Below are positions 547-32,392 of a DNA stretch of 64,000 nucleotides, one piece after another. The stretch covers positions 1-64,000 of the forward strand of contig JBHLRZ010000012.1 of the NCBI GenBank assembly GCA_048882045.1, given 5' to 3'. A program made the translations under genes and the position numbers. Below the pieces are notes generated by a model. That model had not been told where the DNA came from. It worked only from the letters and a program-made list of their open reading frames with translations, and searched no databases. Each line of letters opens with the position of its first letter. Within the stretch, counting starts at the first letter, position 1. This DNA is from Candidatus Thorarchaeota archaeon. Lineage in GTDB: Archaea > Asgardarchaeota > Thorarchaeia > Thorarchaeales > Thorarchaeaceae.

Positions 547-2019
547 TTGATGAAACGACGCGGTTTGCTTGTAGCTACGTCTGCTGTTCTCTTGCTTTTG
601 TTGGTTTCCCTCCTGTATCTTGCTTTACTGGGATTCTGGAATGGGACGACTGATTCTTCGCCTGACATAATCATACATAATGGAGAAATCTTGACTATGG
701 AGCAAACTCCGGCACAAATCGAAGCACTAGCCATCAAAGGCGAGTATATTGTCGCTGTAGGCGATGAGAGTGACATCTTAGCACTGGCTGGTCCAAACAC
801 TCAATTCATCGACCTTGAAGGAAAGACGCTTCTTCCGGGTTTTAATGATGCTCACTCTCATCACATAGGTGACCGGAGTTATGTGAACCAATCAACGTCA
901 GACGAAGTGATTGAATCAGTACTTAGCGCTGGTTGGACCAGCATCTCTGAACTATTTGTGAATCAAGATCGATTGGACGAGCTCATAACTCTGAATCAAC
1001 AGGACACTCTTCGCATACGTGTCAATGCATATCTTCCATTGTCATGGCAGTTTGAGAGGTTCGGCAATTGGTATCAAGCCTATCAACCCGGGCAGGAATA
1101 TAGTTCAAAATTGAGGATAGGAGGAGTGAAGATTTTCATGGATAGTTGGTACTATGAACCGCTTCAGTACTTCGATCAGACTGAACTGGATTCATTGGTA
1201 CAACAAGCCCATGATGATGGATTTCAGATTGCTATTCACAGTGTGGTTGACAATTCCACAGACATTGTTCTAAACGCTCTAGAATCCGCCTTGGACGGAG
1301 AATCAAACCAACTGTACCGTCACCGAATAGAGCATCTTGTTATGCTCAGAGATGACCAGATACAGAGATTGGCTGACCTAGGAATTATTGCGTCTATCCA
1401 GCTCACTTGGATCAACTCAGATTGGACCCAGGCAGTGTCATGGCCAGTTTTGCAAAATTATCCGCACCTTGCAGGTCGATGGAGAAACATTCTTGATGCT
1501 GGGATTCCCTCTCAGGGAAGCACTGATTTTCCCTGGCTTTTAGGATCTGTGAATCGATCAGCTATGTATGCAGTTTCGAGTTCTGTCACCAGGGTTGGTG
1601 GACTAGGGCTTACCCCTACAGATTGGATGCTAAATCAGACCATAAGTGTGGAACAGGCTCTGCGGCTTCTAACAATTGACGCAGCATATGGTACGTTTCA
1701 AGAGGATGTTAAGGGGAGCATCAAGGTGGGGAAATTTGCAGACTTAGTAGTTCTTTCTGACAACCCTTTGACGGTTTCAGAAAACACGCTCGCTGACATA
1801 GAGGTATTAATGACGATGGTTGGAGGAGTAGACGAATACACTGCGCCTGGACAGCAGTCTTTCTCTGCTGAGTACATGGTATCCAATAGTCGAACGATAG
1901 AACAATCAGGCCAACCGGTTATGATTGAGATGATGAATGCTCCAAATCATAAGGACAAATGGTGGACCGGGCGAGATTCGAAATCATATTCCTCGCTCTT
2001 CCAGTCTACTTATTACTAG
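547..2019 (+). CDS. Membrane-anchored YtcJ-like metal-dependent amidohydrolase (Amidohydro_3), copy A
   Basis: PGFNDAHSH, GVKIF, IHSV, RIEH, STDFP and GSIKVGKFADLVVLS motifs. N-terminal KRRGLL is followed by a hydrophobic helix. The ORF reads through the repeat at 1960 (WWTGRDS). Confidence 0.9.
   Translation: MMKRRGLLVATSAVLLLLLVSLLYLALLGFWNGTTDSSPDIIIHNGEILTMEQTPAQIEALAIKGEYIVAVGDESDILALAGPNTQFIDLEGKTLLPGFNDAHSHHIGDRSYVNQSTSDEVIESVLSAGWTSISELFVNQDRLDELITLNQQDTLRIRVNAYLPLSWQFERFGNWYQAYQPGQEYSSKLRIGGVKIFMDSWYYEPLQYFDQTELDSLVQQAHDDGFQIAIHSVVDNSTDIVLNALESALDGESNQLYRHRIEHLVMLRDDQIQRLADLGIIASIQLTWINSDWTQAVSWPVLQNYPHLAGRWRNILDAGIPSQGSTDFPWLLGSVNRSAMYAVSSSVTRVGGLGLTPTDWMLNQTISVEQALRLLTIDAAYGTFQEDVKGSIKVGKFADLVVLSDNPLTVSENTLADIEVLMTMVGGVDEYTAPGQQSFSAEYMVSNSRTIEQSGQPVMIEMMNAPNHKDKWWTGRDSKSYSSLFQSTYY
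1960..1982 (-). repeat. Perfect 23-bp copy of the tRNA-Ala 3' end (att-like)
   Basis: TGGTGGACCGGGCGAGATTCGAA, identical to 6674-6696. Confidence 0.95.
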
Positions 2020-2211
2020 AGTTATTGGAATGACTATTATCACAATGACTAGAAGGTAAGAAGACCCATACGGGTTAATAATGAAGGATTGAGCTAACAA
2101 GAGGAATACTACAATACTCAAGAATATGAGACATAATCTCTGGAAATTGACGCTCTCTCGGAGATCCTTAACCTCCCTCGACAGTTCCTCAAGATCAATC
2201 TCTTCACTCAT
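1984..2211 (-). CDS. Small two-TM membrane protein (cassette gene)
   Basis: GGGAGA RBS-like motif, charged N-terminus and two hydrophobic helices. The stop codon lies 1 nt from the repeat. Confidence 0.65.
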   Translation of the reverse strand: MSEEIDLEELSREVKDLRESVNFQRLCLIFLSIVVFLLLAQSFIINPYGSSYLLVIVIIVIPITLVISRLEERGI

Positions 2212-2293
2212 GACGAATCTCCCAAAAGACTACGCTTCGATCTGAGATAAAAACTATCACTATTTTGGAATCTTTGACTCTAACAGAATGAAG

Positions 2294-2316
2294 TGATGGA
2301 CTTGGCAAAAACCGAA
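2294..2316 (-). repeat. Decayed copy of the tRNA-Ala 3' end
   Basis: TGATGGACTTGGCAAAAACCGAA is 16/23 ungapped to the consensus and is intergenic. Confidence 0.65.
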
Positions 2317-2361
2317 ACCTTTCTTCGATTATGTTAATATGTTTCCATTCTAAAATATTGC

Positions 2362-3060
2362 TTGGAGTTTCGGGAATTGTTGTTTAATCAATCTAGAAAG
2401 AGAATCGTGGCAATTGCTACTGTATTTGTTATCGGAGGAATTATCATTGTCGGGTTCTCTATTGCACAAAATCCTCCTACCAGCGATATACCCGAGCCTT
2501 CTTTCCTTTATACAAGTTTGAGTGACCTGTTCAGATATAACAATGACACCCAAGGTGGTGTTGTAACTAACTACCTGGAGTTCCACATTTCATTCGATAA
2601 TTTTCATGATGGGAATGCCTTCCTACGACTACGTACTGCCATAATCACGGTTTGGGTGGCTGATATAACAACTCACCAGCCAAACACCTCTCTGATGCAA
2701 TACGATTCATATAATTCATTGATTTTTTGCAATCCCTTTAGAGACCAGAATGAGATATTCATTAATGATAACAATGCTACTGATGGAGAATGGTGTGCTA
2801 CTGGGACCTGTACAGTATTACTGACAACCAATGAGTTGTTCGAAAATAACGTGATTTTTGTCCACTATGGCTTCATGTTGATTAACAATATTGCAAAAGA
2901 GTTTGGCGGACATCAGTTCCTTGTCAAGGTTCAAGCTGACATCACATACAATGCTTTCTACTATAGTGGACTATTGAATTCTTTTTACCAAGATGCGACT
3001 TTCAATTGGACTTTGGGTGAGGATGATCCTATCTATATGCTGCCCATCAGTCCTACATGA
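2362..3060 (+). CDS. Hypothetical membrane-anchored extracellular protein
   Basis: Single N-terminal TM followed by an Asn-rich, beta-type domain with N-x-S/T sequons. Confidence 0.7.
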   Translation: MEFRELLFNQSRKRIVAIATVFVIGGIIIVGFSIAQNPPTSDIPEPSFLYTSLSDLFRYNNDTQGGVVTNYLEFHISFDNFHDGNAFLRLRTAIITVWVADITTHQPNTSLMQYDSYNSLIFCNPFRDQNEIFINDNNATDGEWCATGTCTVLLTTNELFENNVIFVHYGFMLINNIAKEFGGHQFLVKVQADITYNAFYYSGLLNSFYQDATFNWTLGEDDPIYMLPISPT

Positions 3061-3095
3061 GCCAAATGAAAAGTGACCCGATTAAATTAGCATAG

Positions 3096-3533
3096 GTGTT
3101 TTCACAGGCTTCGAGCAAATGTTTTTCCAGTTTGGAGTTGATAACTTCTCAGAAACTTCTGGAGGTCTGTAAGATAGAGTCATCCCCGATTGATGAAGCA
3201 AAAGAAGATACACGACCTCGTTGTTCGTGGTGTGGCAAGCTGTTCACACCCAGTGTTTTTACTCCAATGGAACCGCTCTTGTACTGCTCCTCTCGATGTG
3301 CCTTTGCAGGTACCTTTTACGAATTGACTTGCATCGCAATCGTCCTGACAGGTAGCTCCATCTACATCCTCAGCGACATGTCAGGAATGAATCTTACAGA
3401 TCCAAAGGCTGGTTTTGTATTACTCCTTTGTTGGGGAGGAGCATTTGTCTTCTGGTTTCTAGCGTTTCTTGGATACAGAGAGAGGGCCACAAGAAAAAAC
3501 GAACAGCAGTATCCGCTCACTGATGAACAATAG
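3096..3533 (+). CDS. Zn-finger (CxxC...YCSxxC) plus two-TM membrane protein; start uncertain
   Basis: CSWCGK...YCSSRC followed by two hydrophobic segments. Confidence 0.6.
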   Translation: MFSQASSKCFSSLELITSQKLLEVCKIESSPIDEAKEDTRPRCSWCGKLFTPSVFTPMEPLLYCSSRCAFAGTFYELTCIAIVLTGSSIYILSDMSGMNLTDPKAGFVLLLCWGGAFVFWFLAFLGYRERATRKNEQQYPLTDEQ

Positions 3534-3593
3534 TATATTCAGATTGATAGTGAATAAGTATACTAGTGTGATTTTGTCGAAATAGACTGCTGA

Positions 3594-4100
3594 TTATTCA
3601 GGGGCTACGATCCTATCTCTGAGGGCTGAAACAAACCTTAGAGAAAGCCCCAGACCCACAAGCGAGAAAAGCAGTCCAGCTGGAGCAGCTAAGTATCGAA
3701 AGGGCGGGTTGATCATTCCAATTACCAATGAATAGATAGATGGTGCAGTTGCAAGTGCATACATAAGGACAGCAGGTCCCATAATGTTGTACGACGCAGA
3801 TCTTCTACCAAAACTCCAATAGATGACATAGATGAGTACAATCTCGAACGGCATTATGAGGATGAGCCCCCATGAAATCATTGGAGCTCCTGCAGGGGTC
3901 GGATCTCCCGATTCTGGTAATATGACACTGATAAACGGAAGCGCTATGGCATAGATAGACATCAGTATTCCCAGAAGTCTGGCATTTCTGAAACTTGAAT
4001 CACTACTTAGCCCTCCTGAGTTCATAACAATCACTCTGAATCTAGATGTCCTTTGGTTTAAGAATTTCCATCCAGATTCAACCGAGTAGCGTTGAGTCAT
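3594..4100 (-). CDS. Hypothetical four-TM membrane protein
   Basis: Four hydrophobic segments; the true start is probably downstream of 4100. Confidence 0.65.
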   Translation of the reverse strand: MTQRYSVESGWKFLNQRTSRFRVIVMNSGGLSSDSSFRNARLLGILMSIYAIALPFISVILPESGDPTPAGAPMISWGLILIMPFEIVLIYVIYWSFGRRSASYNIMGPAVLMYALATAPSIYSLVIGMINPPFRYLAAPAGLLFSLVGLGLSLRFVSALRDRIVAPE

Positions 4101-4869: not shown

Positions 4870-4892
4870 TGGTGGACTGGGCGAGATTCGAA
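4870..4892 (-). repeat. Near-perfect copy of the tRNA-Ala 3' end
   Basis: TGGTGGACTGGGCGAGATTCGAA is 22/23 and starts 4 nt after the MTase stop. Confidence 0.95.
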
Positions 4893-5167: not shown

Positions 5168-5190
5168 TGGTGGACCGGGCGAGATTCGAA
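5168..5190 (-). repeat. Perfect 23-bp copy of the tRNA-Ala 3' end
   Basis: Identical to 6674-6696. Confidence 0.95.
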
Positions 5191-5254: not shown

Positions 5255-6892
5255 ATGACACGACGTGGACTGCTTCTAGCTACATCTCTCGTACTTACGA
5301 TCTTACTAGCATCTCTCTTGTATCTTGGTTTACAAGGATTCTGGAACACAACCGAAACTCCTCCCGACATCATCTTTCACAATGGCATAGTCCTTACCAT
5401 GGAAGAGTCACCTTCACAGGTCGAAGCAGTAGCCATCCAGGGTGAGTATTTCGTCGCTGTAGGCGATGAAACTGATGTTCTTGAGTTGGCTGGTTCAAAT
5501 ACTCAACTCATAGACCTTGAAGGACGGACCCTGGTACCTGGATTTATCGACTCCCATTGTCATTGGTTTCAAGATCTATCATCAATAGTGAACATATCAT
5601 CAACAGAAGAAGCAATTGAAACCATTCTAAGATCTGGATGGACGAGTGTCTCAGAACTGTATGCGTATCCAGAGCGTTTGGATTTGCTGAGAAGTCTAGA
5701 TAATCAAGGCAGCTTGCGTGTTCGTGTCAATGCCTATCTTCCATTAAACTGGCAGTTTGATAGATTTGGAGACTGGTATCAAGCCTACCAACCTGGACAA
5801 GAATTCAGTTCGAAGTTGAGGATTGGTGGTGTGAAGATATTCAATGAGGGAACTTTCTTGCATTATGATCATTTCTTCAGTCAGACTGAACTGAATTCAC
5901 TAGTACAAGAAGCCCATGACGCAGGGTTCCAGATAGCCACTCACAGCATAATCCACAATGGCACAGATATCGTCCTTAATGCCTATGAATCAGTCTTGGA
6001 TGGGGAATCGAACGAAGACTATCGACACCGTATCGAACACCTTGTCCTGTTGAGGGACGACCAAATTCAGCGAATGAGTGACCTTGGGATTATTGCCTCC
6101 TTCCAGCTCACTTGGCATAATTCAGATTACTTAGCAGCAACAGGTGAAGACCAGGTATTTGCAGACCTGCACAGTGGCGGACAACCTGTTGCTAGATGGC
6201 GAAACATCCTACAGGCTGGAATACCCTCCATTGGAGGTACTGACTTTCCTTCGTTCTTTTTCTCTAACAGTTCAGTAATGTTGACGATTTCTAAGGCGGT
6301 CACTAGGATAGGTGAGCTAGGCATCACACCTACAGATCAGATGTTGAATCAGACCATTAGTGTAGAGCAAGCACTCCGGCTCCTAACTATCGATGCGGCT
6401 TATGGCACGTTTCAAGAGGACATCAAGGGCAGCATTAAGGTGGGGAAGTTTGCAGACCTAGTGATCCTTTCAGACAATCCACTTACAGTTCCGGAAGACA
6501 CACTTGCTGACATCGAGGTACTGATGACGATGGTTGGAGGAGTAATGGAATACATAGCTTCGGGACAACAGATTCTATCTACAGATTACGTAGGAGTCAG
6601 CATTCAAAATATGGAATACTCAAGTCAACCAATCATAATGGAGCTGATTGATACTCCGAATCAGAAAGAAGAGTGGTGGACCGGGCGAGATTCGAATTCG
6701 CGCTCCGCGTCTGAGATTTACGCGGGGTCTCGCGACCTCCTCCAATTTGGTAAGTACGCTATTGCGCAACTTTTGCCAAGGAGGCGATCTCTGCCGACGC
6801 CATCGGTAATCGAGGACGTAACCGGGCTGATCTACCGGCCCACGTGCTGGTTCGGAGTTCTTGATAGAATGGTTAAAAGAATTGTGGAGTGA
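5255..6892 (+). CDS. Membrane-anchored YtcJ-like amidohydrolase, copy B; the C-terminal ~70 codons run antisense through tRNA-Ala
   Basis: PGFIDSHCH, GVKIF, THS, RIEH and GTDFP motifs; AAGGAG RBS; collinear with copy A up to WWTGRDS. Confidence 0.9.
   Translation: MTRRGLLLATSLVLTILLASLLYLGLQGFWNTTETPPDIIFHNGIVLTMEESPSQVEAVAIQGEYFVAVGDETDVLELAGSNTQLIDLEGRTLVPGFIDSHCHWFQDLSSIVNISSTEEAIETILRSGWTSVSELYAYPERLDLLRSLDNQGSLRVRVNAYLPLNWQFDRFGDWYQAYQPGQEFSSKLRIGGVKIFNEGTFLHYDHFFSQTELNSLVQEAHDAGFQIATHSIIHNGTDIVLNAYESVLDGESNEDYRHRIEHLVLLRDDQIQRMSDLGIIASFQLTWHNSDYLAATGEDQVFADLHSGGQPVARWRNILQAGIPSIGGTDFPSFFFSNSSVMLTISKAVTRIGELGITPTDQMLNQTISVEQALRLLTIDAAYGTFQEDIKGSIKVGKFADLVILSDNPLTVPEDTLADIEVLMTMVGGVMEYIASGQQILSTDYVGVSIQNMEYSSQPIIMELIDTPNQKEEWWTGRDSNSRSASEIYAGSRDLLQFGKYAIAQLLPRRRSLPTPSVIEDVTGLIYRPTCWFGVLDRMVKRIVE
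6674..6841 (-). tRNA. tRNA-Ala(GGC) with three introns (D-loop, 37/38, 53/54); CCA encoded
   Basis: Spliced model: GGGCCGG TA GATC AGCCCGGTTA GATC G CCTCC TTGGCAT GGAGG AGGTC GCGAG TTCGAAT CTCGC CCGGTCC ACCA. It has G3:U70 and A73. Introns are at about 6790-6818, 6745-6773 and 6697-6728. Confidence 0.9.
6871..6878 (-). promoter_or_regulatory. Putative TATA box of tRNA-Ala
   Basis: TTTTAACC on the minus strand about 30 nt upstream of the tRNA 5' end. Confidence 0.5.
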
Positions 6893-28249: not shown

Positions 28250-29515
28250 ATGCCGAAGTTGACATTTCTAGGATCTTGCAGAGAGATTGGTAAATCCGGA
28301 TTTCTTGTTGAACAAAAGGATGAGAGTGTCCTGGTGGATTATGGTGTCAAATTCACTGATCCACCAACTTTCCCTGACATGGTGCCCACGGACAGCTTAC
28401 AGGGAATTGGACTCACACACGCTCATCTAGACCATTCGGGTGGTATTCCCAGTGTACTGTCTCATACTGAGGCATCCCTATTCTGTACACCTGCAACTCG
28501 TGACCTGAGTGTTCTTCTGCTTCGTGATATGTTCAAAATTTCCAAAGGACCACTTCCCTTTAATCGGAAGGATATCGCACTTGTCAAAAGACAATGTCAA
28601 GCCACACCCTATGAACAAACAATACCACTTGGTCATAACTTCGAGATGACACTGTTCAACGCTGGACATATTCCAGGAAGCTCCATGGTGTCAGTCAGAG
28701 TTGACGGGAAGCGGATTCTCTTCACCGGCGACTTTAACGCAACAGAGTCTCAACTGAACCTAGGTGCTAGGAAGAACCTCCCCAAACACGATATCGTTGT
28801 CACCGAGAGTACATACGCTCGTCGAGTCAATCCAAACCGGGAAGATATTGAGGTCGCCCTGATTGATACGGTGATTGAAACTCTTGAAAGGGGTGGGACT
28901 GTACTAATTCCCGCTTTTGCAGTAGGGCGAAGTCAGGAAATCATGTGCATCCTAGAACAGCATGAGATCCCTCGTAAGTATCCCATGTACATCGATGGCA
29001 TGGCTCGGGCTGTCAATGAAATTCTTGTGAAACATCCCGAATACCTTCAAAGTCCCCAATCATTTCAGAGGGCTGTGGGGAGGACTCATATCATCCACGA
29101 CAACCGAGATCGCACAAAGGCCGTTCAGAAGGGAGGCATCATCATCTCTCCAGCGGGGATGCTGAAGGGTGGTGCATCACATCTTTATTTCAAAATGCTC
29201 CATGATGACCCAAAGAATGCTATTGTACTTGTAAGTTACCAGATTCCTGGTACTCCAGGGGCTGAGATGCTTGCCACGAAAAAGGTGGTAGTAGGAAATC
29301 GGGAATTTGATGTCACAGCAGACATACGTCAGCATCATCTGTCATCTCATTCAGACTCCAAGGGTATGCTAGACATGCTCACTAGGATTCCCGGGGACCC
29401 TGAATTCTATGTTATCCATGGAGAACCAGAATCATGCGACGCTCTTGCTGAAAAGCTGGAAAAACGGAAACGTGTGGCACATGTGCCTGAGATAAACGAG
29501 AGTGTCAAAATCTAG
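28250..29515 (+). CDS. Beta-CASP metallo-beta-lactamase ribonuclease (aCPSF2-like)
   Basis: THAHLDHSG, AGHIPGS, ESTY and SSHSD motifs; no KH domains. Confidence 0.9.
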   Translation: MPKLTFLGSCREIGKSGFLVEQKDESVLVDYGVKFTDPPTFPDMVPTDSLQGIGLTHAHLDHSGGIPSVLSHTEASLFCTPATRDLSVLLLRDMFKISKGPLPFNRKDIALVKRQCQATPYEQTIPLGHNFEMTLFNAGHIPGSSMVSVRVDGKRILFTGDFNATESQLNLGARKNLPKHDIVVTESTYARRVNPNREDIEVALIDTVIETLERGGTVLIPAFAVGRSQEIMCILEQHEIPRKYPMYIDGMARAVNEILVKHPEYLQSPQSFQRAVGRTHIIHDNRDRTKAVQKGGIIISPAGMLKGGASHLYFKMLHDDPKNAIVLVSYQIPGTPGAEMLATKKVVVGNREFDVTADIRQHHLSSHSDSKGMLDMLTRIPGDPEFYVIHGEPESCDALAEKLEKRKRVAHVPEINESVKI

Positions 29516-29727
29516 GCTAAGGCTTCTCCACCTCTTGCCTCTACAACTTGACACTTGACCTGCTGGATGATTTCCTCGGCCTTTTGGGGCTCAACAACCA
29601 TTGTGTAGAGGTATTTCTTTGTGCGGAGTTTGAGCTTTACTTGGTCAGTACCTCTCTTGACCCTGCATTCCTCTGCATCCTCTGACATCTCGAGGAACTT
29701 ATCGACATCATAGATTTGTTTTGGCAT
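29512..29727 (-). CDS. rpl38e: 50S ribosomal protein L38e
   Basis: MPKQIYDVDKFL...VKLKLRTKKYLYT; ATG at 29727. Confidence 0.9.
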   Translation of the reverse strand: MPKQIYDVDKFLEMSEDAEECRVKRGTDQVKLKLRTKKYLYTMVVEPQKAEEIIQQVKCQVVEARGGEALA

Positions 29728-29754
29728 TGTTAAGCACCATTGTTTTCTGAGATT

Positions 29755-29777
29755 TGGTGGGCTGGACGAGATTTGAA
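29755..29777 (-). repeat. Inverted 22/23 copy of the tRNA-Val 3' end (positions 54-76)
   Basis: Minus strand TTCAAATCTCGTCCAGCCCACCA vs TTCAAATCTCGTCCGGCCCACCA at 30120-30142. Confidence 0.92.
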
Positions 29778-30005
29778 ATGGAATCCAACCTGAATGTCCA
29801 CCTGCTGATGGCACGGCTTATGATGTTGTTATAACTCTAACGCTATGAATTCATGTCTTTCTCGCAGTGATTTGACACGCAATATCCATCGAGTGCATTT
29901 GTGAATTTTACTAAATTGCGTGACGAAAATTCGATTGCTGCATTAAAGGTCAACAAAACTCAACGTCATTCTTATAACCGATAGACCCCCTCAAGTTCAA
30001 TGCAT

Positions 30006-30142
30006 GGGCCGGTGGTCTAGCCCGGTTATGATTTGGTCAAGTTTCTTGACCATCTAATACACGTCGCCTTCACAAATAGAGTTCCTTGGACCTCTATGGG
30101 ATTCGGCGAATATCATGAGTTCAAATCTCGTCCGGCCCACCA
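30006..30142 (+). tRNA. tRNA-Val(CAC) with two introns (23/24 and 37/38); CCA encoded
   Basis: Spliced model: GGGCCGG TG GTCT AGCCCGGTTA TGAC G TCGCC TTCACAC GGCGA ATATC ATGAG TTCAAAT CTCGT CCGGCCC ACCA. Introns at 30031-30060 and 30075-30103 each contain an internal hairpin. TATA-like CTTATAA at 29971. Confidence 0.9.
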
Positions 30143-30240
30143 CTTCTTCAAGAAACATGAGTGGTTGTTCAAGAATATTCAAACCCAGAAAATCCAATGA
30201 GATATATAGGGTAATTGATAATATCCTTTCGGGGATTGTA

Positions 30241-32085
30241 TTGGTCAAAAGGGCTTTTTCAATAATACTCATAGCTATCCTTGTAATTCTTGCTTTCAAT
30301 CAAGAGGCTGTATCTCCAAGTAACACAGAAATCAATACCATACAGTGCTTTGAGATTACAGGATATACAAGTCATGCCACGATATCAATTCAGAATAACG
30401 ATGACTTTGACTCACAGGGATGGCCGGGCAATGGCACCTCAGATGATCCTTACATTATCTCCGGATTGAATATCACTTCTGATGATCGATGTATTGTCAT
30501 AACAAACACAGATGTCTATTATAGAATTGAGAACTGCTATATCTCATCTTTAGGGGCGAGGAATCAGCTGGGCATATATCTCCTCAATGCTCCATTCGGA
30601 ACTGTAGATAATTGTAAGATAAACTCACATGAAGAAGGAATTCGTGTCCAAGATTCTCATCACTGCAATGTTACTAACAATATCCTCTACTACAATCTCT
30701 ACAATGGAATCTTCCTTTCAGTAGCGGACTATGCTATCGTGGAGAACAACACTTGCTACGATAACGACCAAGGGATTATCTTGAATAATTCGGTTCAAGG
30801 CGTTTTAAGAGATAACAATGTAACATTGAATAGAAATGGCCTTACAATATATAGTTCAGAAAATTCGCACGCTTATAACAACTCAGCAGTTGCTAATTCA
30901 GCACGAGGGTTTTCTTTGGCTTTTTCTGAATTTTGTACATTACAAGCAAACAATGCAACAAGCAACATAGAAGATGGATTCTATGTCCGTATTTCTGATA
31001 GTTGCAATCTTACAGACAATTATGCGAGAGATAATGACGAAGGATATGAATTACAAGAATCATCAAATATTCGGCTAGAATCAAATCAGGCGAAGGAAAA
31101 TTCTGGAACAGGAATTGCCTTGGATGATTCTCACAACTGTCTGTTTTTCCAAAATAATTTGTCTCAAAATTCAGGAGCGGGAGTCCAACTTTTTGGCGGT
31201 AGTTCCAACAATCATCTGGTTCTGAACAGGATTGAAGTAAATTCTCTAGGCAATGGTTTTGACTACGTTGGCACAAATCATTGGGATGATGGAGTAGAGT
31301 TTGGCAACTACTGGGGTGATTACGACGGAAGTGGTGTGTACAATCTCGATGGAACCGGTAACGCAGACGATAACTATCCATTTTCTTGTGGAGTAGTCCC
31401 GTTTCTTAATCATCCAAGAGATATCACAATTGAACTTGGTTCAGTAGGAAGCACAGTCACATGGAGCGCAAACGATGTCGACCAAGCCACTTACAAGATA
31501 TTTCAAAATACAACTCAGAAAATCTCCGAAGTGTGGGATGAGCCTTTCATTAGTGTAAGCCTGAATGGGTTGAACGTTTCCACCTACAATTTCACAATAG
31601 TAGTGACTGATACTCTAGATAATTCTGCACTTGATACAGTCTATGTTGAAGTTGTAGACACTACTTCTCCAGATGTTGATAGTCCTGTGGACATTGTATT
31701 TGAAGAAGGAACACCCGAGCAATTCATCATTTGGACTCCCTTTGATTTCGATCCGGATTCATACACAATACACAGAGATGGTATGTTGCTCATATCAGAA
31801 AGTTGGAATGGCTCTCAAGTAACAGTTAACATCACAGGATTGTCTGTGGGATCCTACACCTATGTGTTGAATCTGTATGATGGTAGTGGAAATTCAGAAA
31901 CAGACACTGTGATTGTTTCAGTAATTGAGCCTGTCACGACGGCTACAACAATCACATCAACCACAACAACATCTCCACTCACAGCTCCCATTCCTCTCGA
32001 TGCCACAACTTTGGTAGTAATTGCTTTGGGGATTGGAGTAGGGGTTATAGTCCTGGCTGTAGTTCTGATGAAGAAGAAATCATAG
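30241..32085 (+). CDS. Cell-surface glycoprotein with NosD/right-handed beta-helix repeats, Ig-like domains and a C-terminal TM
   Basis: GWPGNGT..DPYII, repeated N...N..GI.L..S, GNYW.DY and a Thr-rich linker. Likely start is TTG at 30241, since the ORF-track start lies inside the tRNA. Confidence 0.85.
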   Translation: MVKRAFSIILIAILVILAFNQEAVSPSNTEINTIQCFEITGYTSHATISIQNNDDFDSQGWPGNGTSDDPYIISGLNITSDDRCIVITNTDVYYRIENCYISSLGARNQLGIYLLNAPFGTVDNCKINSHEEGIRVQDSHHCNVTNNILYYNLYNGIFLSVADYAIVENNTCYDNDQGIILNNSVQGVLRDNNVTLNRNGLTIYSSENSHAYNNSAVANSARGFSLAFSEFCTLQANNATSNIEDGFYVRISDSCNLTDNYARDNDEGYELQESSNIRLESNQAKENSGTGIALDDSHNCLFFQNNLSQNSGAGVQLFGGSSNNHLVLNRIEVNSLGNGFDYVGTNHWDDGVEFGNYWGDYDGSGVYNLDGTGNADDNYPFSCGVVPFLNHPRDITIELGSVGSTVTWSANDVDQATYKIFQNTTQKISEVWDEPFISVSLNGLNVSTYNFTIVVTDTLDNSALDTVYVEVVDTTSPDVDSPVDIVFEEGTPEQFIIWTPFDFDPDSYTIHRDGMLLISESWNGSQVTVNITGLSVGSYTYVLNLYDGSGNSETDTVIVSVIEPVTTATTITSTTTTSPLTAPIPLDATTLVVIALGIGVGVIVLAVVLMKKKS

Positions 32086-32233
32086 GGTCAAGATTTCATT
32101 CATACCAATCATCTAGTGCATCTTCATCGAATAGCTACACTTCGTCCTCGACGAATTCAACAGTGATTTGATTTCCAACCGCTGAACCTGGCGTGAGTAC
32201 AGTGATTCCATGTTGATTTCCAGAAAACAGAGA

Positions 32234-32392
32234 TTACTTCTTTGAACGTCTCTTTGGTCTGAGGTCCTTGTTCTTGCATTTTCTGCACTTCTTTGCCTTA
32301 AGTGGATTAGTTGCTCCACAGTACCGGCAAATGGACTTGTACAGCAGATAGTGCTGTGCTAGCCTACGTTTTTCGATGTCAGCTACTGGCAT
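32234..32392 (-). CDS. rpl40e: 50S ribosomal protein L40e (below the ORF-track cutoff)
   Basis: Manual translation MPVADIEKRRLAQHYLLYKSICRYCGATNPLKAKKCRKCKNKDLRPKRRSKK*; GAGGT RBS. Confidence 0.93.
   Translation of the reverse strand: MPVADIEKRRLAQHYLLYKSICRYCGATNPLKAKKCRKCKNKDLRPKRRSKK

Follow-up and report, generated by a model that had tools for sequence, protein, structure and literature searches.

The window analysed here, a stretch of 64,000 nucleotides (nt) from a Candidatus Thorarchaeota archaeon (contig JBHLRZ010000012.1), carries an inverted 23-nt copy of the end of a tRNA-Val(CAC) gene next to rpl38e, the gene for ribosomal protein L38e. The inverted copy is probably the stranded tail of an old tRNA-Val gene that was split by foreign DNA bringing a replacement tRNA, and hence a scar and not a recombination site in use. 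This reading is backed directly by the comparison of empty and occupied sites in related genomes, by orphan halves of the old tRNA gene, by the foreign spare tRNA and by the single orientation of the locus in all assemblies.

The inverted repeat and its tRNA gene

The arms of the inverted repeat, TTCAAATCTCGTCCAGCCCACCA at 29755-29777 on the minus strand and TTCAAATCTCGTCCGGCCCACCA at 30120-30142 on the plus strand, are identical at 22 of 23 positions and are spaced by 342 nt, the same values as given in a preliminary description of the window. A 28-nt extension still matches at 89%, and 100 shuffles of the window yielded no match comparable to the 23-nt inverted repeat. The repeat spans exactly the part of tRNA-Val(CAC) from T-loop position 54 to CCA76, and the sole mismatch between its arms is at position 68; a tRNA rebuilt by flipping would have a C5-A68 pair, as the preliminary description had pointed out. 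Its remark that a second tRNA has the same T-loop break point was also borne out. Direct copies of a tRNA-Ala tail in the register 54-76 are present on the minus strand at 1960-1982, 5168-5190 and 6674-6696, with a variant at 4870-4892. Rows of direct tRNA-tail copies occur both at the window start and on contig C49 of the same genome, and tRNA-Pro(CGG) on contig C11 and tRNA-Val(GAC) on C49 end in the same 23-mer as the window tRNA. Fragments from the T-loop to CCA are therefore frequent in this genome.

Neither ARAGORN with default settings nor Rfam (gathering score and E-value mode) called a tRNA at the locus or anywhere in the window, and at the locus the gene was missed because it has introns. 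With introns allowed, ARAGORN detected 30006-30142 but mis-parsed it as Arg(CCT). We parsed the gene by hand and verified the result by splicing out both introns: without 30032-30061 (intron 1) and 30075-30103 (intron 2), a canonical 78-nt tRNA-Val(CAC) cloverleaf is obtained. Intron 1 lies in the D-arm region and intron 2 at the canonical 37/38 site. This is the sole Val(CAC) gene of the assembly, and its anticodon arm was found nowhere else there.

Empty and occupied states among relatives

We established how the locus is oriented in 25 congeners and in two less closely related genomes; with the genome of the window (G000), the counts for the genus refer to 26 genomes. A tRNA tail on the strand of rpl38e, 26-31 nt upstream of its ATG, was recognised in 24 of the 25 congeners, the sole exception being G009, in which the tail has decayed past recognition. 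Thirteen genomes show an empty state, with an intact tRNA-Val(CAC) whose tail precedes rpl38e and with rpl40e within about 20 nt of its 5' end, all on one strand. This layout (rpl40e <- tRNA-Val(CAC) <- rpl38e) appears to be ancestral, because it is shared by half of the genus, by the outgroup family (G019) and by most of 44 Thorarchaeota loci. Compared to the empty-site relatives, the homology of the window stops at 29777 and returns at about 32215, just before rpl40e, and the sequences in between, i.e. the left arm of the insert, the spacer, the plus-strand tRNA and the beta-helix gene listed below, are all absent from the locus in empty-site genomes. The fragment at 29755-29777 is orthologous to the tail of the minus-strand tRNA-Val gene still complete in 13 congeners. 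The comparison of tRNA-Val/rpl38e synteny in relatives, proposed as a check in the preliminary description, thus came out in favour of what had been its alternative there, the scar of a past integration or rearrangement. The features of the locus in the window are the following:

29512..29727, minus strand: rpl38e (ribosomal protein L38e, 71 aa), left flank; Pfam PF01781 (L38e), E 4.4e-14; identical protein on 8 contigs of other assemblies
29755..29777, minus strand: orphan 3' end (positions 54-76) of the presumed ancestral tRNA-Val(CAC), left repeat arm; 22/23 to the tail of the plus-strand tRNA, and synteny in relatives
29778..29849, no strand: conserved left arm ('rem') of the insert, putative rpl38e promoter; relative positions 1-122 homologous in G016, G018, G011, G005 and G009
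29827-29841, facing rpl38e: palindromic TATA-like motif TGTTATAACTCTAAC inside the left arm; motif shared by occupied relatives
29850..29963, no strand: spacer; no blastn match in any congener
29964..29978, plus strand: promoter-like motif CGTCATTCTTATAAC, about 30 nt upstream of the plus-strand tRNA; same distance to the tRNA in all plus-strand genomes
30006..30142, plus strand: probable replacement tRNA-Val(CAC); exons 30006-30031, 30062-30074 and 30104-30142, the last 23 nt being the right repeat arm
30157..32085, plus strand: cargo gene for a Beta_helix/NosD/PKD-like protein of 642 aa; Pfam PF13229, E 4e-43, and PF05048, E 9e-31
32086..32215, no strand: right end of the insert, placed by junction comparison; lacks the 5' orphan kept by G012, G017 and G009
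32234..32392, minus strand: rpl40e (52 aa), conserved right flank; Pfam PF01020, E 1.1e-5, above cut-off

The 13 occupied genomes fall into two groups. In seven of them, the orphan tail is followed by an arm of 72-85 bp and an intact tRNA-Val on the minus strand, and tail, arm and tRNA are arranged as direct repeats. In the other six, including that of the window, the orphan tail and the same arm are followed by the spacer, a complete tRNA-Val on the plus strand with a shared upstream motif, and cargo. The arm motif TGTTATAACTCTAAC is present in all 13 occupied and in none of the 13 empty genomes, and CGTCATTCTTATAAC is confined to the region upstream of the tRNA in the six plus-strand genomes; the two TATA-like boxes noticed earlier in the segment between the repeat arms are both there, each within one of these conserved motifs. 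Cargo differs in every genome and comprises the beta-helix protein of the window, TPR proteins, PrcB-like and CxxCxxCC proteins, and acetyltransferases. The tblastx search left the cargo gene of the window unmatched at the locus in all congeners, with homology returning only at about 32215.

Remains of the old tRNA gene were recovered on both sides of the insert. An orphan 5' part, from position 1 to about 47, adjoins rpl40e in G017, G012 and G009; G017 and G012 retain halves of the old tRNA on both sides, G009 has the 5' half and the decayed tail, and the window has the 3' fragment only, nhmmer having found no tRNA remains in 32086..32215. In G017, the D-loop of the orphan equals that of the resident tRNA of its sister species G007, and the D-loop of the plus-strand tRNA equals that of the plus-strand spare of G001. 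The plus-strand tRNA is therefore an incoming gene and not the resident gene reversed. No homology was found between the regions upstream of plus-strand and minus-strand tRNAs; together with intron 1, which is private to plus-strand copies, these non-homologous regions rule out a simple reversal of the resident gene. Neither does the spacer consist of reversed sequence from the regions upstream of the relatives' tRNAs, for which no match was obtained. Between the same flanks (the arm on one side and an HNH gene, described below, on the other), the tRNA module of G003 is oriented opposite to those of G001 and G013. The rpl40e side of G001 is on a separate contig without tRNA remains, and the full insert of this genome was thus not delimited.

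The spare tRNA of the window also differs in detail from resident tRNAs. Its T-loop reads TTCAAAT, as compared to TTCGAAT in 10 of 13 resident tRNAs. Intron 1 is similar to plus-strand copies only (25/30 in G009) and intron 2 to minus-strand copies only (23/29 in G016); the window gene is therefore a mosaic, and the copies swapped sequence at some time. Introns of about 30 nt are located at 53/54 or inside the T-loop of tRNA-Val(CAC) in G005 (L018), G008 (L026), G010 (L029), G001 (L025) and G017 (L021). This site is the break point of the resident gene in occupied genomes, and introns there would interrupt any recognition site in the T-arm. G017 (L021) in addition contains two nested minus-strand orphan 5' parts of tRNA-Val(CAC), at about 790-868 and 2540-2614 nt right of the rpl38e start, one of which is of the G003 type with its own promoter, the other being of the resident type and adjoining rpl40e. 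Together with the plus-strand spare, these nested orphans point to at least two successive hits on the locus.

The locus was found in a single orientation wherever the species could be recovered. With the exact L38e protein as query, we recovered six additional contigs, which come from two metagenome-assembled genomes at NCBI and four Logan runs and, together with the window, make up seven assemblies of the same species. The six contigs are 100% identical to window 29401-30400 (or to the contig end), and all seven assemblies show one orientation, which is the majority state, the only one that assemblies reveal, so that rare flipping may have gone unseen. Scanning metagenome contigs of the JGI for flipped and unflipped junctions returned neither; the species is thus missing from that collection, and the outcome has no bearing on flipping. 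No flipped cassette was present in the 25 congeners, in the sense that we found no reversed arm motif, no orphan plus-strand tail and no intron-1 tRNA joined to the tail on the rpl38e side. Two of the Logan contigs, L035 (SRR30758835) and L036 (SRR30758836), end at window position 30146, 4 nt past the CCA of the tRNA, and the two others read through; this stop is not where a T-loop flip would break a k=31 graph (30149). The contig ends suggest that the sequence beyond the tRNA varies between strains that occur together.

On a tree of the 26 genomes built from the adjacent beta-CASP and rpl38e DNA, the three locus states require at least 11 changes. The plus-strand state alone needs 5 changes, at least 4 of which are forced by well-supported branches. 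Because of these 11 or more state changes on the genus tree, the locus qualifies as a recombination hot spot. The scattered states may stem from insertions of related elements on several occasions, from a single old insertion with many precise losses after it, or from exchange of the locus between species. Deletion between the direct tail copies would restore the empty state.

Origin of the insert and competing explanations

The course of events that we propose would start from the ancestral order rpl40e <- tRNA-Val(CAC) <- rpl38e, in which about 27 nt separate the CCA end of the tRNA from the start codon of rpl38e. Foreign DNA of about 2.4 kb (29778 to about 32215) would then have inserted into the tRNA gene at the T-arm, with breaks at 53/54 on the 3' side and, as judged from the relatives, at 47/48 on the 5' side. 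The old tail (29755-29777) would have remained before rpl38e, and the 5' body would later have been deleted in the lineage of the window. The insert would have brought three parts. The conserved arm, with its TATA-like motif toward rpl38e, would face a gene that had been severed from the tRNA promoter, and we infer that this arm now supplies the rpl38e promoter. The spare tRNA-Val(CAC) on the opposite strand would have come with its own promoter, an extra intron and the T-loop TTCAAAT instead of TTCGAAT, and the variable cargo would make up the remainder, here the beta-helix protein. The inverted repeat would exist because the old tail and the tail of the spare gene face each other.

The preliminary description had favoured a different explanation, an active invertible switch in which recombination at the 23-nt arms flips the 342-bp segment, rebuilds a minus-strand tRNA and swaps the promoters of rpl38e and the beta-helix gene. 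For such a switch speak an inverted repeat far beyond chance that ends exactly at the T-loop, the two conserved TATA-like motifs within the segment, the palindromic core TTCGAA of the usual T-loop, an orientation of the tRNA versus rpl38e that varies among congeners with at least 5 changes on the tree, and the mosaic window tRNA, according to which inverted copies once recombined. We nevertheless consider a working switch extremely improbable, since seven independent assemblies agree on one orientation at 100% identity, since no congener has a flipped cassette and their minus-strand tRNAs have other upstream regions and no intron 1, and since in the remaining five plus-strand genomes the repeat arms have not been kept as a matching pair (15-19/23 in G001, G013, G017 and G012; fragment decayed in G009). 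Moreover, a search for tyrosine and serine recombinases (PF00589 Phage_integrase and PF00239 Resolvase) gave no match in the 93%-complete assembly while control genomes did match, and the flipped tRNA would bear the C5-A68 mismatch. The same lack of an integrase bears on a second scenario, in which a tyrosine-integrase element entered at the T-loop of tRNA-Val, the integrase then drove an inversion between attachment (att) copies, as known for Int-pTN3, and the element decayed. The T-loop break point and the block of identity over 54-76 agree with att sites of the T-loop type, the tail, arm and minus-strand tRNA of seven congeners form direct repeats, the tRNA module is reversed between the same flanks in G003 versus G001 and G013, and integrase-driven att inversions at tRNA genes are documented (PMC5495485). 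However, neither the inserts of G000, G001, G003, G009, G012, G013 and G017 nor the assembly as a whole yielded an integrase, the plus-strand tRNA, with a separate upstream region and an additional intron, is not the resident simply reversed, and orphan 5' bodies ending at 47/48 are unlike attL/attR products, which makes this scenario unlikely. That the fragment might instead be retained by selection as part of the rpl38e leader, e.g. as a processing or regulatory signal from a tRNA-mRNA co-transcript, would agree with its presence 26-31 nt before the ATG in recognisable form in 24 of 25 congeners, with the unusually intact copy in the window (22/23) and with the empty-site rpl38e, which has no room for its own promoter between tRNA and ATG, making co-transcription likely. 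But orphan tails appear to decay freely, with 16/23 in G011, 15/23 in G017 and 17/23 in G018 and an unrecognisable tail in G009, so that a leader role seems very unlikely.

Returning to the insertion scar, relatives offer a candidate for what moved the DNA. A large protein with five helix-turn-helix (HTH) repeats and two CxxC...HxKDG...CxxCH..VHW modules is encoded directly beside the spare tRNA in G012, G009 and G003, and remnants of this gene are present in G001 and G013. In the PHROGs database, the modules match several families of HNH endonucleases (E 1e-5 to 1e-7). Its only homolog in G000 is an open reading frame (ORF) of 931 aa at 848-3640 on contig C49, located 20 nt behind tRNA-Val(GAC) in convergent orientation, the two together spanning 723-3640; the last 26 nt of this tRNA-Val(GAC) are those of the window tRNA. 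Direct copies of a tRNA tail follow on C49 at 9765, 13075, 13783, 16525 and 16919, one of them with a CCAGCCC variant. An uninterrupted TTCGAAT T-loop is found in 10 of 13 empty genomes, in none of the 6 plus-strand genomes and in 2 of the 7 genomes with a minus-strand spare (raw Fisher p 0.003), the remaining tRNAs having a changed T-loop or an intron that interrupts or adjoins it. Because the nuclease gene adjoins the spare tRNA in relatives and the T-loops of the spares are altered, there is a reasonable chance, somewhat short of even, that this HTH-HNH nuclease drove the spread of the insert as a selfish element; it would cut naive tRNA-Val T-arms and spare the altered copy. We also put forward, tentatively, the fuller version in which the insert is a decayed, integrase-free selfish element: the nuclease would cut the TTCGAAT T-arm, the break would be repaired from the element-bearing copy, and a resistant spare tRNA and an outward promoter would offset the damage. 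Resistance of the spare would then lie in its changed T-loop or in a T-loop intron. If this were true, repeated rounds would explain the at least 11 state changes in 26 species, the nested orphan halves and how unusual tRNA introns were gained in Asgard archaea.

Several observations weigh against this account. The insert of the window itself carries no nuclease or recombinase gene; for this reason mobility at this site is historical and the window copy is an immobile remnant. The 5' orphan is absent in the window, i.e. the split gene is here reconstructed from relatives. The identity of the window fragment (22/23) is above that in other occupied genomes (15-19/23); gene conversion between the copies may have caused it. 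Differences in the arm and promoter motifs roughly follow the clades of the tree, which leaves one old insertion with many losses, or exchange between species, as possible causes of the scattered states. The HNH assignment comes from PHROGs and motifs only, as none was made by Pfam, by NCBIfam (sub-threshold HlpB only) or by a PDB profile search, and an AlphaFold model of one module reached a predicted local distance difference test (pLDDT) score of 60, too poor to use. Finally, the association with the T-loop is not significant once relatedness is taken into account (5 independent pairs, sign test, median p about 0.125).

Related systems and further observations

The nearest published case is the tRNA-Thr(GGU) locus of Caldiarchaeum subterraneum, which combines a resident fragment, a further copy carrying one more intron, and a short element, and whose states differ among close relatives (PMC3293823). 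For this locus, Sugahara et al. (2012) propose that the integration of mobile elements scatters tRNA fragments and adds introns (PMC3293823). Both loci have a fragment and a complete copy of the same tRNA with an extra intron beside an insert. In Caldiarchaeum, however, a DNA recombinase gene lies in the insert, and in one population the fragment comes from the 5' side of the tRNA, whereas here the 3' tail is kept, the spare is on the opposite strand, the sole mobility-type gene in relatives is an HNH-like nuclease and the target lies within a row of ribosomal-protein genes.

Inverted tRNA-derived repeats, and the mechanism behind the switch favoured earlier, also have a counterpart in Thermococcus, where Int-pTN3, a tyrosine integrase, uses inverted tRNA-derived att copies as inversion substrates and produces large chromosomal inversions within 60 generations (Cossu et al. 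2017; PMC5495485). The present locus differs in that no integrase was detected, one orientation was found and the tRNA on the plus strand came in as a copy of its own. Partial tRNA genes are known to mark integrated elements from a survey of Thermococcaceae (PMC9897764), and the T-loop-to-CCA 3' piece at the border of inserted DNA beside a tRNA gene resembles such scars. A classical scar is a direct repeat downstream of a rebuilt tRNA, whereas here a whole spare took the place of the resident and the repeat copies are in inverted orientation. As for the features of attL/attR sites, an insert relative to an empty site and its bounding by tRNA sequence are present in the window, and a direct repeat with a rebuilt resident and an integrase are absent. 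T-loop and anticodon-loop classes of att sites were reportedly distinguished by Williams in 2002.

Homing-endonuclease genes and other selfish elements that cut the target and carry a resistant copy are known. The locus resembles these in the nuclease gene at a disrupted target (in relatives), in the altered and presumably uncut target copy inside the insert and in the scattered occurrence among species. It differs in that the window copy lost the nuclease, in that the insert is not spliced like an intron or intein and compensates with a second gene and an apparent promoter, and in that cleavage is a prediction here. A split, trans-spliced tRNA does not fit, since no 5' half of a Val(CAC) of the GGGCTGG/GGGCCGG type is present elsewhere in the assembly and a complete gene adjoins the fragment. 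What sets the locus apart from these cases is that a split gene was apparently replaced by a spare on the opposite strand, that a ribosomal-protein gene seems to be supplied with a promoter, and that the companion is of the HNH type instead of an integrase.

For annotation, the locus illustrates that a striking inverted tRNA repeat near promoters need not be a switch, and that the only Val(CAC) gene of an archaeon, with two introns, is overlooked by standard tRNA finders. It also provides a natural series of empty, occupied and nested sites over 26 species, in which an insert splits and replaces an essential tRNA gene in a row of ribosomal-protein genes. If the HNH reading were true, one testable mechanism would join hot spots at tRNA genes, the origin of odd introns and fragments, and the collection of cargo without integrases.

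The remaining observations concern details of the locus and its flanks. No tRNA starting with GGGCTGG that would fit the inverted copy perfectly, for which the preliminary description had suggested looking, occurs in the genome. The resident tRNA-Val(CAC) of the outgroup G019 (L050, another family), located 31-126 nt upstream of rpl38e, does have the acceptor stem GGGCTGG/CCAGCCC and thus the same A68 as the orphan of the window, but its T-arm differs; the A68 of the window may have arisen by a chance transition or may go back to an old variant. Within the spacer, a T-arm-like string (CGTG-TCAAAT-CAC) is present at 29866-29880 on the minus strand, roughly where the T-arm of the relatives' minus-strand spare would fall; nhmmer gave no report of it, and it may be due to chance or be a badly decayed remnant.

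Of the flanking genes named in the preliminary description, rpl38e was confirmed (PF01781, E 4e-14), and the presumed surface-glycoprotein gene turned out to encode the Beta_helix/NosD/PKD-like protein, for which a role at the surface is plausible. The neighbouring ORFs encode TruD, Alba, beta-CASP, L38e, the beta-helix protein and SucCD. The interval 29728-29754 and its equivalents in all congeners contain a Shine-Dalgarno-like box, GGTG(C), about 9 nt before the rpl38e ATG and no TATA box within the 27 nt. Given this lack of a TATA box between tRNA tail and ATG, rpl38e is probably co-transcribed with tRNA-Val in empty-site genomes.

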